A stretch of DNA of 64,000 nucleotides from Rotaria socialis (taxonomy: Eukaryota), in assembly GCA_905331295.1 (NCBI GenBank), contig CAJNYD010000077.1, forward strand, positions 1 to 64,000, in the 5' to 3' direction. The position numbers and the translations under genes were made by a program. Shown here piece after piece: positions 12,651 to 24,100 of this stretch (within the stretch, counting starts at the first letter, position 1; every line of letters begins with the position of its first letter). The notes below the pieces were generated by a model. It saw only the letters and a program-made list of their open reading frames with translations. It had not been told where the DNA came from and made no database searches.

Positions 12651-14099
12651 TTAATGTGTTGCACAATTGACCTGTGTTGGTCCACCCTGATGACCTGACT
12701 CATCGTCGTACATTTCATGTCTATGTGCACGTTGCGATTGACGTGGATCATATTCAACTAAAACACATTCTTCAGCATTCATTGGCAAATGAACTTTTGT
12801 ACGTTCTGGTAAAACGGCTTCTAATTTTGCCAGGTTTTCTTGTTTTAATTCATTTTTATCTGGAAATTTGACATCAAAATGTAAAACAAGACGACCTTTT
12901 TCTAATGGATTTCGATAAACAGGCATTCCTTCATTTAAAATACATTTTATATCTCCTGGTTTTATAATTTCACCTGAAATAGATAAATAAAAATAATTAT
13001 TTTCATTTCAAATTGTTTTCTTTTCTAGCTAACCTGGTAGTGTAGTAACAACTAATTGTCGATTATCAAGTGTTTTAATAACTTTATGAAAACCACATAA
13101 TGCTTCAGTTAACGTTATTTGCATTTTTATATGTAAATCAGTTTTATCTCGTTTGAATGTCGCATTTTCTTTTTCATCCAAAACAACAATAATATCACCT
13201 GGTTGAAGACCTGGCTCTTGATCACCTTCACCGCTAAACGTAATTTTCTTGCCATCTTCCATACCTTTTTTCGGGGAAAAAAAGAAAAACATTTTTCTAA
13301 AAAAAACTGAATAATTCATGTAATTTTTTATTACCTTTATCAATATGAACTTCGATAATTTTTCTTTCTCGAACAATTTTTTTGCCATCACACGATTTAC
13401 ATTTATCTTTCGCATTTATTTTTTCACCTTGACCATCACAATCTGAACAATGTGATCGAATTTGTTGAATCATGCCCGGTGCTATTTGATTAATACGAAC
13501 AACAAAGCCAGAACCATTACATGTTGTACATTTCGATACGGCACCTTTTTTTCCACCACGACCTAAACAAAAGAAAACATTTCAACAAACGAATGGTCTT
13601 CATTTCTTTTCATACCTTCACATTTGTCACAAACAACATTCTTTTGTAATGCTAATTTTCTTACAGCTCCATTATAAAGTTCTTCTAATGAAACCGCTAA
13701 TTGATGAACGAGATTTTTTCCACGATGTTCTTGTCGAGTTCCAAATGGACTTCCGCCGCCACCAAAAAACATATTGAAAATATCGAATGGATCTGAACCA
13801 TGAAATCCACCAGAACCAGCTCCTTCTTTCATACCTTGCTCACCAACTTGATCATATAATGAACGTTTCTTTTCATCAGATAAAACTTCATCTAAACAAA
13901 AATTCTTCATATATTTCTTTTTCTTCGTAGCTAAAAACTTACAAGCTTGTGATAACTGTTTGAATTGTTCTGGATCATTATCTGGATTTTTATCTGGATG
14001 TAATTTCAAGGCTAGTTTACGATAGGCTTTTTTGATTTCATCAACTGTTGCAGTTGGTGGTACACCGAGAATATCATAATATTTCGTATCTTTAACCAT
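12651..14099 (-). CDS. DNAJA1: Type I Hsp40 / DnaJ subfamily A; exons 14099-13943, 13891-13616, 13562-13335, 13264-13034, 12973-12651
   Basis: J-domain with HPD, G/F region, four CxxCxG repeats, C-terminal CaaX (CATH). All introns GT-AG. The exact paralogue (A1/A2/A4) is not resolved. Confidence 0.93.
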
Positions 14100-14439
14100 G
14101 TTGATTAAAACTGAATGAACAAGACAGACGAATTAGTGAAAAAACAACGATCAAATGATCTAAAAAGAAAACAGCAAATAATATTGTATTGACGATGAAG
14201 AAGAAAGAATGAAAGGAAGAAAGGAAAAATCCAAAGATGTAATAATGACTCAGACCAATAGTTTTGCAAGATTTTAGAGAACAATAAGAGAACGAAATGG
14301 CTACACGAAATAAAATTTGTGTTTCTTGAGAGAAACAAATGAAGTAAACATCTGATAACACACAAATTGCAAAATAAAAGAGAAAAGAGAAAAAATACTG
14401 TTTTCATGAGCCTTCATAGATGAAAAACAATAATTATTT

Positions 14440-17400
14440 TTAAAAATTCGATAAAAGACCATCGAATCCATTTAATGTTCGTGTAATTAACCGGAAATGT
14501 TGTTTTAATCTTGACCAATATAATTGTGATGCATCACATAATTGCGTTTGTGGATCAGTAGGTATGCCGAATAGAAGATTTGATAATAATGGAAATGGTA
14601 CAGCGGTATTTGTTAGACCAAAAGCTGGTCCAATCAGAACATGTCTATACATAAAATAGTTCATTTCTCCTGTTGTACATAATAAAGTAAAAATAGTTCT
14701 TACTTATATGTATTATCTGCTGTATTTGTTCGACGTAATTGGTCATCATTAATAAATAAACGTTCAAATTCAATAAGTTTTTCATTGAATATTTGAAAAC
14801 TGAAATAACTTTAAGATTAGAAAAAGATGACATTTTTTTTCTTCTGCATCTATCTCAAATATCTTAGTTTTCATACTTATTCTTAGGTATTTGATCAATA
14901 TTCGATTGAATTTGTCGCATCACTTTTGTTAATTGACTTATTATTTTCGTCATTTCATCTAAAATTGTTTTTATTAATACTAAAATCTACATATAACAAC
15001 TGTCTTACTAGAATCACCGAGATGTGAGCCTAACGCTTGGTATGCTCTATCATAGTGAGCAAGATAATCAATTGTTTGCATATCAATTGAGTCAGCATAA
15101 TTGGTTAAATCAAATGGTATTAATGGTTCATCAACAAGTTGACGAATTATTTCAGATACGAATTGTGCATAAGCAACAATAACCTTTTTGTAAAATAAAA
15201 AAAAAGTAAATTCAATTTGCAAAAATAAAGAAGAAAAACATACGTCTGGTTCGATTTCATGACTAAAAACAGGTGGAGAGTTTTGCAAATAGAATGTATC
15301 CTTGGTCAATGCCTAGAAAAACACAATTCAAAATAGTTTTCGTTTCGATCATTATGAAAACATCTATCATCGAGTAGCAAAACACAAAGAAATTCACTAT
15401 TATAAATAGTCGAAATACTTTAAATTCTATGCAGTACTAATCAAAATAAATGCATATATAAAATGAAGGGAAAAAGACTGCTATTTAAAAGAAAACATTG
15501 TGTGTGCAATCATGCAAAGAAAAATTTTACTGGAAACTTCTAAATATGCAAAGTATATTAGTGAATAAGAAAGAACAAAAAGAAAAAAGAAGGAGAAGAA
15601 TGAGAGGTAAATCCTGTTTCATTGAAGCATATCGACAAAGAAAAGATATATGTCGTTACATTAGCATGCTGCATGAGCATACTATTATATATTTGGAATG
15701 AGAAAACAAGGACGTTATTATTATTTTACCTAAATAATAAATTATAACTTTCATGCATGAATCATCTTATGAATTCTTAAAGAAAAATCGAAGGTTATAT
15801 TCTTATTTTCAATAACTCTATTGAAACTAACTTTTTCTTTGCAAGAGATAAATGTATGATACCTGTTCATCAGTCATTTCAATAAGTAATGATGGAATTC
15901 CGTGTTCCAACAGAAATAATGCTGCTGCTGAATCGATATCAATCATTTGAATGATACTGGAGGTTTTATTTGATCCAATTCTATTGTTACTAGCTCTCAT
16001 CCATTCATCAAATAATTTATGTGGTTCGCATTCCGTTTGTTCTTTATGTTCATTCGTTTCCACGTGATTTTCATGTTCTTCATGACGTCTTCTTCTATGA
16101 ACATGAGAATGAGATTCAATTGTTGGCTTTCGACGATGATGACATGTATGATTATGAATAAGTGGACTAACAACAACATCGGCAGCACGTTGAGCAATTC
16201 GTTGTAGTAATGGTGAACCATGTAAATTGAGTGTTGAATTTCCAATAATACCATTTCCAAGATCAATATATGCAATTAAATTTCTATCAATCAGACGATA
16301 GTTATCTGAAATCCAACGACGAACTAAATATTAAAACGAAATTTATTTCAATTGAAATATTGATTTTCTTTTCTCACTTGTATAACGATCATATGATAAA
16401 CCTGACCAAGCACAAAATAAGATTGATCGTCTAAAATAGATAGAATTTAGATATACAACCTATCGTTTTCATTAGATAATAAGTATTTTTGTATTCGTCA
16501 TTTGTTTTCACAAATATTTTTCATATTATAAATAAAATTTCGTATTGAAGATCGAATAGATATATTCTGAATAATTCTTATACTATTCTTTCATTTCAAA
16601 AGGTCTATAATCTTGACAACATAATTCTGAATAATTTTTTCAAAGCAAATATCTAGATGATGTTGAATTACTTTAAATGTAGTATAATATTATCTATAGT
16701 ACATAACTTGCTAGCCTAATGTTATAGACAAGCTTATTAATAAACGATTATTGTACTCGTGAAAGTCTATTCTCTAATAAATAATTGTCTTCATGCTATT
16801 ACAGTAGTTTTGAATGTATCGTGTTCTTTTAATGCTCATGTTGATTGTTTTCTAATCTTTGCATTTTCGAACCATAGATAATTTGTAATCAATACAATAC
16901 TTAACTATTTAGGATGTCCTTATAAATGAATTGCAGCAAGATTAAATCCGTGATATAGACATATATTTTTAGTGATATTAGTCTGAGCTGGACTGTATCA
17001 CTAAAATTTGTATTTCATTCTGTATGAACTTAAAGAAGAGAAATTATTCTCGACTTATGAAGATTTTCAGGCTAGTATGATTTTTGATTATAACGTAGTA
17101 GCATAGTTTTGCTTATTCTCAGAATTGTGAAATCCTACGTGCGTCATAAAATATTAACATTGCTGTTTATGAAACATTATCAGACGAACTCAAAAGCAAC
17201 TATTTTAAGAAGAAATCCAAGCTCAAAAAGATTCTTTCTTTGTAATCATAAAAACATGATTAATATAGAAATGATTTGGCCTAATTCGATTCTCATAAAA
17301 ATTCTGGCCTCCGATTGCACTTCTTTAAAAATATAGGAATCCTTAGAGGATCAAGGTTGTCAAAAAAAAAGGATTTTCGATAAAAAATGGCAAAAATATA

Positions 17401-19538
17401 GGATGTTTTATACATAGTTTCTGCTGAATTGTTTTGCTGTTTTTTAACTGCTCTGCTCGAGAATCGTTTTAATGAAGTTGTTATCAACAGTTCAACCGTA
17501 GCCAAGATCCTTATGTAATTTTTTCTACTGAAATAAGTCGCTAATGCAAGGATCATGATAAAAGTTTTTCACAAATCGATAAATAACAATAAAGTAGATC
17601 ATAAGCTTTAAAAAAACAAATGCTATTTCTCATAATAAAAAGAGACATTTCAGATTACGGACATGAGTTCCCAAAAAAATCTCAACCTAATTTTATTGTT
17701 CTGATAATCAGCATTCATCGCTTATTATTTGCCACAAGTTTATTTTGTATTTTATCATAACTCAATTTTTTCTGGTAATAAATAAGTGTCAATACATATA
17801 TACAGGATGGCGTAAAATTTCACGGGCTATCAGAATATGTCGTTACTTTTTAAAAAATATGTTCTTTTGGTAACAATATCCTCAAAATACAGACTGAAAC
17901 TTATGTTTCCCAGAGGTATATATATAAATATATACAGCTTTTATACCTAACTAAAACTTTATTAAAACTCTGAAACTAGTACACGACCGATAAAATATAG
18001 GGAAAATAAGAATTTTTAGGAAAATATAGCACAAAAATAAGACGTTTTTGAAAATATAGGAATTATAGGAAATATAGGTCGAATCGCAACCCAGATAATG
18101 ATACAAACATATAATAAAAACAAACCTTGGACGCCATCCATTTTTTATTTCACTGCCGTAAGCATGAATAATTTCATCAATAACTTTTTCTTGTTGCTTT
18201 CTACCAAGTTGATATCCAATCATAATAAAATGATCAACATCAATAATACCACGAATATAACCAAGAACCAATGGCAAATGCACGGGTACTTCTTCCATAA
18301 ATGTTGTTAAATGAAGTTTTGTTTTCCGAAGTTCTCCACCTAATTTGAGTGAACTTGGTTTATTATGCCATTGAGATGGACATGGTAACCATGGATTTGA
18401 ATCAAATGAAAATATTTTGTCGACATCTGAATATGAAAGAATCAAAACAGATATTTGTTGATCGTCATCATTGGAAATACCATCGAGAAAATTTTCTCGT
18501 TCTATAAAAAAAAAACGATATTTTTGCGAGATCTAATTTAATTTAATTTAATTTACGTTTCTCTGTTGATAATCTTCCCCATTCTTCGGAAAATGAGTGT
18601 CGGTCATTGGTTATTGTCATATTTTGGTTTGTTTGATCATCATTACTACTATCATCGTCATCAAATAAAACAAGTCCAGCAAATCCATAATGTATTGCTT
18701 GATGAATTTGTTTTGTTTGCGAAATAATTGTCAACTTTCTACGCATAAAAACAATGGCATGATTATTATTTTCAAAATTGATTTGATTCTTATTAATTAA
18801 ATAAGCGAAATCTTCTTGGCGACCATAATTAGCATAATAAATATAACTTGCCATTACTTTTCCTGATTTAATTAATGATGAAAATGATAAATAATCGTTG
18901 GTGGTTAAAACATTAAATTTTTCAATTTCTTGATCATTTTTTCGATCAAGCAATTGGATACCACTCCATTGTACGGATGGAGCATATTTTGAAAGAGTTA
19001 AGTCATATGAAAGTTTATTTACACGATTAAATATACTTGATAGAGATTTCCAATTTAATTCTAATTTATTTGCAGCATCACTTTCAGATTCAATGGAGCT
19101 AAAAATAAGAAATAAAATTGAAACAACATGAATTTTTCGTTTTACTAAATTTTACCGATTGAGATTGAGAAAATTTGTCTTTTTTAGTGATTGAAAAACT
19201 TTTGTTTGGATTGTTAGATCAATTTCTGTTAAACTAGGTGAATTATAGAGTGTTGCTGAGGATGATTCAGCATCTTGAGACATCCGGTAAAGTAAAATTG
19301 CTACGCCAGTGAGACATCCGAGTATGAACGCGCATAATATAAGAATAAAAAATAAAATAGGATGAGTACTACTATTAGTACTAGTACGACCACGTTGATA
19401 AGTTTTTGGACGTTTGGAAACAATGGGATTATTGATTTGATTAGATGTTGTTGTTGAAGATTGACTTAATTCATTAGCATCATCATCAGGCGATGCTAAA
19501 AGAAGAGCAGCTTTTTCTTCATTACCTAACTGACGCAT
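14440..19538 (-). CDS. M28B family type II membrane protein (GCPII/NAALADase/transferrin-receptor-like), predicted inactive; multi-exon
   Basis: N-terminal TM (ILFFILILCAFILGCLTGVAILL), PA-domain YANYGRQEDF, GWRPR|RSILFCAWSG, IAYID, PLIPFDL..YA, and TfR-dimer-like NEKLIEFERLF and YKHVLIGP. ~1.7-kb intron at about 16434-18124. Confidence 0.85.
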
Positions 19539-21197: not shown

Positions 21198-24100
21198 TTA
21201 TATTTGTATGAGTTGTTCCGCATCAGAGGGAGTAGTTGACAAAGAAGAAGCTGAAGTTTCACTTATGCCAAGTCCAGCATCTTCATCATCATGATCTTCT
21301 TCGTCTTCGTCTTCTGAACTAAACATTTTCGATGTTAAATCTGATATTTGATCTAGTTCAGGGCCACTTTCATTGTTATTAAGATTATTATCATCAAAAC
21401 ATTGCTGATTACGTGCTGCTGCTGCTACTACTGTTGCTTTAGTAGTTGTGGCCACATCGATTGTTTGAGGAACATTTAATGATGGCAAACTATTATATAA
21501 AGTTAATTGTTTTCGTTGTTGATAAATGAGTGATGTCGATGGCGAAGATGACGTTAATATTGACTCGGCATCACAAATAGTTGATGATGAACAAGGGGTA
21601 TGATTTGTCAGGTCAAATGTTGGACTTTGATTTTGCCGTAGTTTTGAAAGAGCTGTTGCATCGTTGAGAACAGTTGGAGTGACGAAAAGTGATTTTGGTC
21701 GCAATTTATCTGTTACAGTAATGAGTGTTGCATGTGCTCTAGTTGTGCCTGGTGAAGGTGGTGGAGGTACTGGTGCTTTGTGAGGTGTTTCCAAGAAGCA
21801 AACAGATGAGTTGACAATTGATGGGACAGCTTTTCTTGGAGTTATATGTGTTTGATTATATGTACTATGAGTAGAAAAACAAATATACTTTTTACAATTA
21901 GACTTGAAAGAAAAACATTTTCTTAAACATCTATTTCAATTTAAGGAAAATTATTTTATAAGATTAGTTTTGTTTTAATTAACTCATTTTAAGTATAATC
22001 TTTTTTAAAATGTGCGAAGTTTTCCATGTGCGTAAATCAAATTTTTGCATCGGTTTCAGAATCAAATGATTCTATGTAAGTGTAATATAGCAACTAGAAA
22101 CTGATGCGAAATCAAACAATTCACGTCAGAACAAATAATAATTTATTAGATTTGCTTTTGCAAATATGCTAATGAATTATAATTTTAGTGAATAAATATT
22201 TGATCGCACTTTAGCATTATTTTCGTAAACATAAGACAAAAAAGTTTTCTTCTTACCTTGACGGTAGTCCAGAATGCTGTTGGTCAAGAATAATATGATT
22301 TAAAAATCGTTTAACTTTATCTTCTACTATGGATTTTTTATCTAGATCATGTAAAAGGTGTTGAGCTGATTGCTTTAAATCACTAAAAAGAAAAAGTAAA
22401 GAAAACCGATGTTTTTCTTTTTATTTATGAACAAATTCTTTATGTCTTCCATACTTGAATTGTTGTTTATATAGTATAATTTGTTGTTTTTGTTCACCAT
22501 AAGATAACTCAAGTGTATGATTTCGATTAAACAATGTAGCAAGATCATCATAGACATGATATAACTTTTGTTTTAATAATAAAATTTCTTCGCGAAGAAG
22601 AAAACGATTATCAGTTGAAACCCATCCTGTATGTTCAGCAAGGGAACGAAGATTCTATTGTCATAGAAATATTATTTTTTCTTTAAAAATAAAATTTATT
22701 AATTGAAATCTTTACTTGTTGAGCCGATCGTTGTATTAGACGAGCATTGTTACGCTCTAAACTCTCTATTTTTTCTTGTAATAAATCACATTGCATTTTT
22801 AATTCTTGGTTTTTTACTAATAATTGAGAACACTGATATTGATTTGTATCATGGTTTTTCCGTACATGAATATCTATAATAAAAAAAAGAACAGATTAAT
22901 ATTAAAGGAAAGAAAAAATGAGTAGAAATCAACGGACATGTTTCATCATTGTGACGAGTATCGAATTCACGCAAATGAACATTAGTGGTTTTTAATTGTC
23001 TAAAAAAACAGTACAATTATTGAAAAGGATTTATCACTTATAAAATTACTTTCGTAGTTCGAAGATTTCGTTTCTCAACGGTTCTAATGACAATTGAAAT
23101 TGGATATCATCTTTAGCATAGGAAAGTGCGGATGAAAGTGAACTTTCAAGCTCATTCCATAAACGATAACACTCTGGATCTAAATAGAAAAATTAATTAA
23201 GAAGAAATTTTGTTTTTATGACAGAATTTTTACCATTGACTGTATTAGTATTTCTTGCTCGAATTAGTTTGGAAATAGTTCGAATACGTATTAGATGGAT
23301 AACGAATTGCTCAATAATAAAATGTGTCTGTTGCTTATGCATAAAATTAGATAAGGGTAAATCTCCACACGATGAACTTCGTATAAGTTCTTGTTGGTTT
23401 TTTGTAAGACGACGGCGACGTCGATTTGGTGATAAAGGAGATTTTTGTCGAAATTTATTATTTATTGATGGAGAATTTTTTATTGGTGTTGTAGTACGAT
23501 GATGAATATTTTGAGTTGTAGATGAAGATGGAGAACGCGTTTGATGTTTACGAGATTTAGTTGAACTTACACGACTTTTTAATAATGACTGGTCCTAAAC
23601 ACAGAGTAAGATTCTGTAAAGCTTTTCATCGCAACAGAACAAAGTAAATGTGAGGTATTATTAATATAGAAAAGCTAACTTCTGTCAGATGCATTATCTG
23701 ATTCAAGAAAGAATGAGTCTTTTTCTTCTATTGAAATTTATGATCCTCATAAATCTTCTATAAGACATTCTCAACGAAATATTTATTCGTAAGAAACAAA
23801 CCTCAGTAGTTGTTGTTGTTCCTGTTGATGATAATAAAGATTTAGTCGGTGAGTATGAAGATCGACGTTCTTCAAGTTCAGTGCTACTACTAATATCTGA
23901 AAATAGAATTTAATAGTCATTGTGCATTTCTATTGTGTCACAACTAAATAAGTATACTTGTTTTAATGAAAGACGTCTTTGAAACAATTGGTTTAGCATT
24001 TTGTTTTTTTATGCGCGTGTGTATTTGAGGTTGTTGTTGATTTTTTCGATATGTTTCACCAATAATGGATGATTTCGAATTTCGACGTGATTCTTTATTT

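Follow-up and report, generated by a model that had tools for sequence, protein, structure and literature searches.

A gene on the minus strand of a Rotaria socialis contig encodes a type II membrane protein with the fold of glutamate carboxypeptidase II (GCPII) and the transferrin receptor (TfR) that has lost its catalytic site and gained a long His-rich surface loop. As judged from the aligned homologues, one unit of this loop is kept in every sequence: a Cys, a flexible spacer, a His cluster, a basic run, a further spacer and a second Cys. The explanation that we prefer, although tentatively and with somewhat less than an even chance of being right, is that the loop of this dead protein is closed by a disulfide and cut by a furin-type convertase, with the His residues making either the cut or ligand binding sensitive to pH or to Zn/Cu. 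The gene lies in the window analysed here, that is, the whole stretch of 64,000 nucleotides at positions 1 to 64,000 of contig CAJNYD010000077.1 (assembly GCA_905331295.1), and its features are collected in Table 1.

Table 1. Features of the pseudo-peptidase gene and of its product, in positions of the window.
Feature	Position	Strand	Remark
816-aa type II membrane M28B pseudo-peptidase gene	14440..19538	minus	ten exons, GT-AG model
Exons 1-5	19538-19156, 19098-18557, 18501-18126, 16430-16378, 16323-15863	minus	
Exons 6-10	15312-15244, 15183-15009, 14958-14877, 14808-14704, 14644-14440	minus	
Cytoplasmic ExxxLL acidic-dileucine motif, residues 8-13	19500..19517	minus	conserved in homologues
Single transmembrane segment, about residues 61-84	19287..19358	minus	hydrophobic stretch; model helix 59-91
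Exon 4, degenerate active-site segment	16378..16430	minus	GCPII Glu424/Glu425 replaced by Leu445/Ser446 (alignment, HMM)
His-rich inserted loop, residues 508-553	16019..16156	minus	in exon 5; takes the place of the GCPII 484-497 surface loop
Cys512, first of the two Cys whose disulfide likely closes the loop	16142..16144	minus	kept in 27/27
His cluster H523-x-H525-x-H527, adjoining the basic run on its N-terminal side	16097..16111	minus	conserved 30/30
RRRR (528-531), likely proprotein-convertase site	16085..16096	minus	dibasic 30/30
Cys550, second Cys	16028..16030	minus	spacing to the LxD(E/Q)W helix constant in 30/30

Eight of the nine introns are seen as joints in transcript contigs, intron 2 is bridged by contigs, and a single 2791-nt contig spans the gene from its first exon to its tenth. 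A transcript splice joint puts the beginning of exon 9 at 14808, which yields the 816-aa product, and the model corrected in this way is identical to P0180 of Rotaria socialis. These contigs are taken as transcripts because they carry the splice joints of the gene, the RNA nature of the runs themselves being a guess. The stretch coding for the His loop is covered by spliced contigs from 4/4 runs; the loop is thus expressed in spliced form, and the concern of the first-pass annotation that it might be spliced out does not apply. Since it lies within exon 5, it does not arise from intron read-through, and its presence in spliced contigs likewise rules out an artefact. Repeat expansion was also considered as the origin of the loop and rejected, as no repeat family accounts for it.

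The product has the single-pass topology of a type II protein, in which a polar tail is followed by one hydrophobic helix, and its ectodomain comprises the three expected domains (protease-like, apical/PA and helical dimerisation), modelled by AF2 at a mean pLDDT of 84.9. The ExxxLL motif of the tail is present in 15/19 long homologues; three of the other four miss that N-terminal part, and one has a shifted variant. Motifs of the ExxxLL type are adaptor-binding signals recognised by AP complexes, and this one is likely to act as an endocytic or endolysosomal sorting signal. A second element of the tail, KRP(K/R)TY (residues 43-48, region 19389-19412), is nearly invariant in the family and is possibly a phosphorylation or docking site.

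Structure matches by Foldseek and VIA cover residues 108-812 and rank GCPII above TfR1, with E-values of 2.6e-40 and 8.7e-35 in Foldseek and Z-scores of 35.1 (rmsd 3.5, 595 aligned) and 32.9 in VIA. The HMM search gave the same order, with GCPIII at 4.6e-34, GCPII at 1e-27 and TfR at 3e-16. In the domain search, PF04253 scored above its cut-off (29.6 bits) and the PA domain below it; UniRef names these proteins by the dimerisation domain only. The ectodomain therefore has the GCPII/TfR fold and is closer to GCPII in both sequence and structure. The description of the host as "transferrin-receptor-like" in the first-pass annotation is right about the fold but not about the nearest relative: because GCPII and GCPIII outrank TfR1, the term can stand for fold and lost catalysis, not for TfR kinship, and no transferrin binding is implied by it. 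Neither the transferrin domain PF00405 nor PF04253 itself occurs in the available part of one A. vaga table.

Catalytic positions were mapped by way of a 750-aa row in which H377, D387, E424, E425, D453 and H553 stand at their GCPII numbers, the catalytic and zinc-binding residue set being that given in the available text of PMC10794815. In 17/17 family rows, His377, Asp387, Glu424, Asp453 and His553 have each given way to another residue or to a deletion. The zinc-ligand positions have become Gln or Glu (His377), Gly, Asn or Ser (Asp387), Gly (Asp453) and a gap (His553), and the proton shuttle Glu424 is replaced by Leu in 15 rows, Phe in one and Ala in one, while the regions matching GCPII 378-386 and 553 are deleted. 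The position of the fifth zinc ligand, Glu425, is mostly Ser or Asp (Asp in 6/17 rows, with Glu kept in 1/17), and a Glu or Asp there alone could not restore the two-metal site. Positions T269, Y272, E433 and E436, which we take to be the Ca-site residues of GCPII, are likewise replaced or absent in family rows, and the domain search found no match to the PF04389 peptidase domain in the protein. Because these catalytic and metal residues are lost across the 17 rows, the family cannot be a two-zinc peptidase, in agreement with the earlier view of the host as non-catalytic. The dead state is not rare, as 15/65 other M28B rows retain three or fewer of the six catalytic residues.

Translation of the minus strand bears out the first-pass description of the loop as 46 residues with 12 His, two Cys and RRRR; it further contains 9 Glu and 6 Arg in all, and is flanked by SPLI and KLFDEW. 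His makes up 12/46 of the loop and about 2% of the remaining protein (binomial p 2.6e-10). The enrichment holds when 18 homologues are pooled (207/954 in the loop, 293/13328 elsewhere), whereas other variable stretches of these proteins are rich in Ser, Thr, Asn and Asp and contain 0-3% His. That GCPII has only a short loop at this place was also correctly noted, the distance from the anchor Pro to the anchor Trp being 53 residues here and 12 in the GCPII-numbered row. In the 65 full-length M28B rows outside the family, the same segment has a median of 12 and a maximum of 29 residues, and it never contains two Cys and has at most two His.

In the AlphaFold model of this protein, pLDDT is 80 for residues 511-520, falls to 55-57 for 521-540 and returns to 71-94 for 541-560, so that the central part of the loop is probably disordered and exposed, as the model depicts it. 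A DSSP bridge joins positions 513 and 551, beside both Cys, in this model, but the model of P0202, a His-poor relative, does not reproduce such a bridge (loop pLDDT 51-58). A Cys512-Cys550 disulfide is nevertheless likely to close the base of the loop, given the conservation of both residues and their lumenal location. A search of the ESM Atlas with residues 495-570 returned one match at 0.78, under the lead threshold.

Conservation within the loop was assessed in 31 loop-bearing sequences, comprising 19 long homologues and 12 fragments, or in 30 once a fragment that starts past the basic run had been dropped; these sequences are related by descent, and the counts given below are accordingly not independent events. 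Cys1 is kept in all 27 sequences that reach it and Cys2 in all 30, and these two are the only Cys common to 17/17 rows. A dibasic site ending in Arg occurs in 30/30, as picked by a pattern that demands an upstream His and a final Arg, and the canonical furin motif R-x-K/R-R in 24/30 (23/29 plus P0202). The site, which falls in the low-pLDDT part of the loop, thus has the sequence characteristics of a convertase substrate. The P4 Arg is missing in 6/30, five of which have His at P4 instead, a weak hint at most, His being dense in this region and the sequences being related. Every one of the 30 sequences has two to six His among the eight residues preceding the basic run, and no other His group is retained by all homologues; His residues around Cys1 are found in 23/27 (one of the four exceptions is a fragment starting at the Cys), commonly as HxHxCHH, which most homologues retain, and His after the basic site in 27/30. 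Alignment with M28B and rotifer relatives, as the first-pass annotation had proposed, thus finds the His, the Cys and the basic site conserved in orthologues and paralogues.

The full load of 12 His does not fare as well as a conserved unit. Total loop His ranges from 9 to 16 in 18 long homologues but is only 3-4 in P0202, P0054 and P0068, giving an overall range of 3-16. These three form a branch in which the loop is trimmed to Cys...HxHxHG, a basic run, four residues and Cys, both outer His arms being lost; the reduction is probably derived, because P0202 groups in the tree with the His-rich P0019. The Cys-to-Cys length varies between 33 and 50 and the basic run between 2 and 6 residues, and the core of His and basic residues persists down to about 44% identity. 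Two further signals, amidation by way of a Gly that precedes the basic run and an ATCUN motif on the N-terminus that a cut would create, were considered and discarded as not conserved.

Comparison with a close relative (contigs X5/X6), for which 18 of 19 exon-5 differences are listed, gave seven non-synonymous and two synonymous codon changes in the loop and one and seven, respectively, in the flanks. The seven changes, all of them present in R. magnacalcarata proteins, spare His, Cys and RRRR (0/18 versus 7/28 codons; Fisher p 0.022, post hoc). On these alignments, the spacers appear to drift fast while the core of His, Cys and Arg is held. The motif alone is no proof of cleavage, since RPRR also occurs at 432-435 in 4/19 rows, in a segment common with GCPII where no cut is expected. 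When each loop is shuffled, a canonical furin motif arises in only 0.6-23% of cases, a low rate that speaks for the site, although the upper end of the range weighs against it. Convertases classically prefer a small or acidic residue at P1', and P1' is often His here.

Named loop carriers belong to Rotaria (five species labels) and Adineta (three), the others being grouped with them by similarity or in the tree. The family forms one clade on a long branch (2.08, FastTree), to which the tree assigns no sister group. Most named species have two copies, and R. socialis and R. magnacalcarata are each found in both clusters; the A. vaga pair sits on records of 18.1 and 15.2 Mb, which are presumably chromosomes 1 and 4. 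The two copies per species probably reflect bdelloid palaeotetraploidy, a background treated in the available part of PMC8494291. The profile search found 756 proteins, of which the best 150 were listed, and 65 full-length non-family matches were aligned. No loop carrier outside the bdelloids was found among the named word-index matches or the best 150 of 756 profile matches, and neither Brachionus nor Didymodactylos was named among the matches listed, the word index being one that misses distant relatives. The loop is apparently restricted to bdelloids, for which such searches give weak support. Other M28B proteins show changes in the same region. A separate group (P0071, which is a hemichordate protein, P0092, P0123, P0127, P0128, P0160 and P0170) has a single Cys and one or two His at the loop start, probably independently of the rotifer insertion; in the clade of P0061 (a mite protein), P0070, P0094, P0099 and P0103, long acidic insertions lie just past the conserved Trp, adjoining the site of the rotifer His loop.

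The conserved anatomy of Cys, His and basic residues is that expected of a disulfide-closed processing loop, and a nicked two-chain receptor or sensor is therefore favoured; the dileucine-type tail motif fits trafficking through endosomes. The Cys pair would staple the loop base in the oxidising lumen, and a convertase would nick the loop at His-x-His-x-His-RRRR in the late secretory or endosomal route. The nicked product would consist of two chains held by the disulfide and the fold, with nothing shed, and the nick would free two flexible His/Glu-rich arms, the charge of which would shift upon acidification or metal binding. With its ExxxLL tail, the protein would cycle via endosomes and act on some ligand as receptor, sensor or scaffold. 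By its residues, RRRR is a likely furin-type cleavage site and the His cluster a likely pH- or metal-sensitive element. According to the available text of PMC12405487, convertases cut after (R/K)XnR, furin prefers R-X-K/R-R, and His beside the cleavage loop acts as a pH sensor in convertase prodomains; in those of furin and PC1/3, the His adjoins the basic site at which a loop is cut, and acidification promotes the cut. The likeness is one of mechanism only, as the folds are unrelated and the rotifer loop is bracketed by Cys and belongs to the ectodomain of a putative substrate. The accessible part of PMC3034195 offers no support for a precedent of His at P6. Convertase genes are expressed in A. 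vaga, at least three PF01483 rows being present in the part of the PMC12220480 supplement that was available.

The His arms might instead capture Zn, Cu, Ni or haem directly, making the protein an endocytic receptor for metal uptake, loaded at neutral pH and unloaded in acidic endosomes. We regard this as possible but doubtful. Long homologues combine their 9-16 His with many Glu and Asp in 18/18 cases, the HxHxCHH around Cys1 is widespread, the tail carries ExxxLL, the ancestral metal sites are gone, and TfR is a precedent for this fold turning into an uptake receptor. However, the His residues differ in number and spacing between homologues, and a nested branch is down to three or four of them, which argues against a fixed metal site as the essential function; the spacers evolve fast, dead M28B proteins are common, and no partner, operon-like neighbour or metal-responsive expression points to uptake. 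As for haem, to which the first-pass annotation had extended its proposal, nothing in the loop or its homologues is specific to it. A bolder version joins uptake to processing, such that bdelloids would independently have made a metal receptor that needs no transferrin out of a GCPII-type peptidase stripped of every internal metal site, with a convertase-activated external His clamp for Zn/Cu or haem at the cell surface and release in acidic endosomes; this we consider unlikely. A trafficking role modelled on yeast Tre1/Tre2, in which the loop would sense lumenal metal and send a metal transporter to degradation, is the least probable of all the readings. Tre1/2 control Smf1 sorting (PMC2810449, available text), the fold class is the same and the rotifer tail has a sorting motif, but Rsp5 adaptors work by PPxY/LPxY (same source), which is found in 0/18 sequences of the family, and the tree shows no link to fungal rows.

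Two further readings dispense with metal. The loop might never be cut, its basic run and protonatable His serving as a cationic patch that binds a protein partner or polyanions such as glycosaminoglycans, gut glycocalyx, polyphosphate or nucleic acid. Basic runs as short as two residues, the 6/30 sites that are non-canonical for furin, and the modelled exposure and flexibility of the loop would all suit such a patch; yet the run ends in Arg (as the search pattern required) and acidic residues mostly come after it, as in processing sites, and the acidic C-terminal arm offsets the net charge, which leaves this reading rather improbable. Less probable still is that a low-complexity insertion has been tolerated at a surface position prone to indels, with only the Cys pair under selection and the His and Arg inherited without function. 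The position does vary in length across M28B, the spacing between the Cys is loose, and non-synonymous changes outnumber synonymous ones in the loop but not in the flanks; a neutral insertion would not, however, explain why other variable loops are so poor in His, why His, Cys and RRRR escape substitution, or why the His-basic core survives to such low identity.

Among known systems, GCPII/PSMA and GCPIII (MEROPS M28B) share the type II topology and the protease, apical and helical domains and are the best matches in sequence and structure. GCPII has the zinc ligands and the proton shuttle that the rotifer family lost, and only a short segment in place of the Cys/His/Arg loop. The PSMA tail carries MWNLL, which drives clathrin uptake (PMC12963954, available text), and the rotifer tail ExxxLL, both being N-terminal leucine-based motifs. 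TfR1 and TfR2 use the same fold non-enzymatically (PMC10794815, in part), and the rotifer protein is likely endocytosed as well; the rotifer proteins, however, score lower to TfR than to GCPII and form a long separate branch, and the TfR-type YxxPhi tail motif is missing in 16/18 rotifer rows, with none in a tail-like position. We know of no TfR with such a His loop. Yeast Tre1/Tre2 are TfR-like and tied to metal-transporter control (PMC2810449, in part), unlike the rotifer proteins in having PY motifs. NAALADL2 and other dead invertebrate M28B proteins have likewise lost catalytic residues, with a two-Cys or His-rich loop in 0/65, and the long branch of the rotifer family allows no orthology with them to be assigned. 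To our knowledge, Tre1/Tre2 share no such loop either.

Dead M28B proteins recur in metal handling, as TfR in vertebrates and Tre1/2 in yeast. A His loop of this fold that is processed by proteolysis was found neither in the homologues examined nor in the literature searched, and literature searches, which did not reach subscription literature, returned no description of a bdelloid or rotifer M28B His loop; what we describe is apparently an undescribed loop on the known theme of dead M28B proteins, a real, conserved and lineage-restricted variant. If the loop is both cut and metal-binding, the protein would be a candidate metal sensor or uptake protein in animals resistant to desiccation and radiation, and if it is a metal receptor, the step from peptidase to metal uptake would have been taken a second time, in parallel with vertebrate TfR. 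If the loop is only processed, it would be a modest lineage-specific regulatory feature.

Several minor observations concern the locus itself. Intron 4 is left unspliced in run X1 alone, and an X1 contig on the plus strand (16403-16571) terminates at 16571 in a loose end of 18 A, 35 bases past an AATAAA at 16531, possibly reflecting antisense polyadenylated RNA across exons 4-5, as seen in the contigs of this one run. Within intron 3, parts of 17303-17917 are matched by divergent contigs of each of the four runs, which differ at numerous positions and have loose ends; this suggests a dispersed repeat or transposon remnant. Directly downstream, on the minus strand, lies a DnaJ gene (Hsp40, DNAJA-like; 12651-14104; PF00226, E 2.5e-22). 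In P0007 of Adineta ricciae (1473 aa), a homologue of the upstream neighbour gene (21198-21935) is fused to the pseudo-peptidase gene; the fusion is likely an annotation artefact, but it still shows a gene order common to Rotaria and Adineta.
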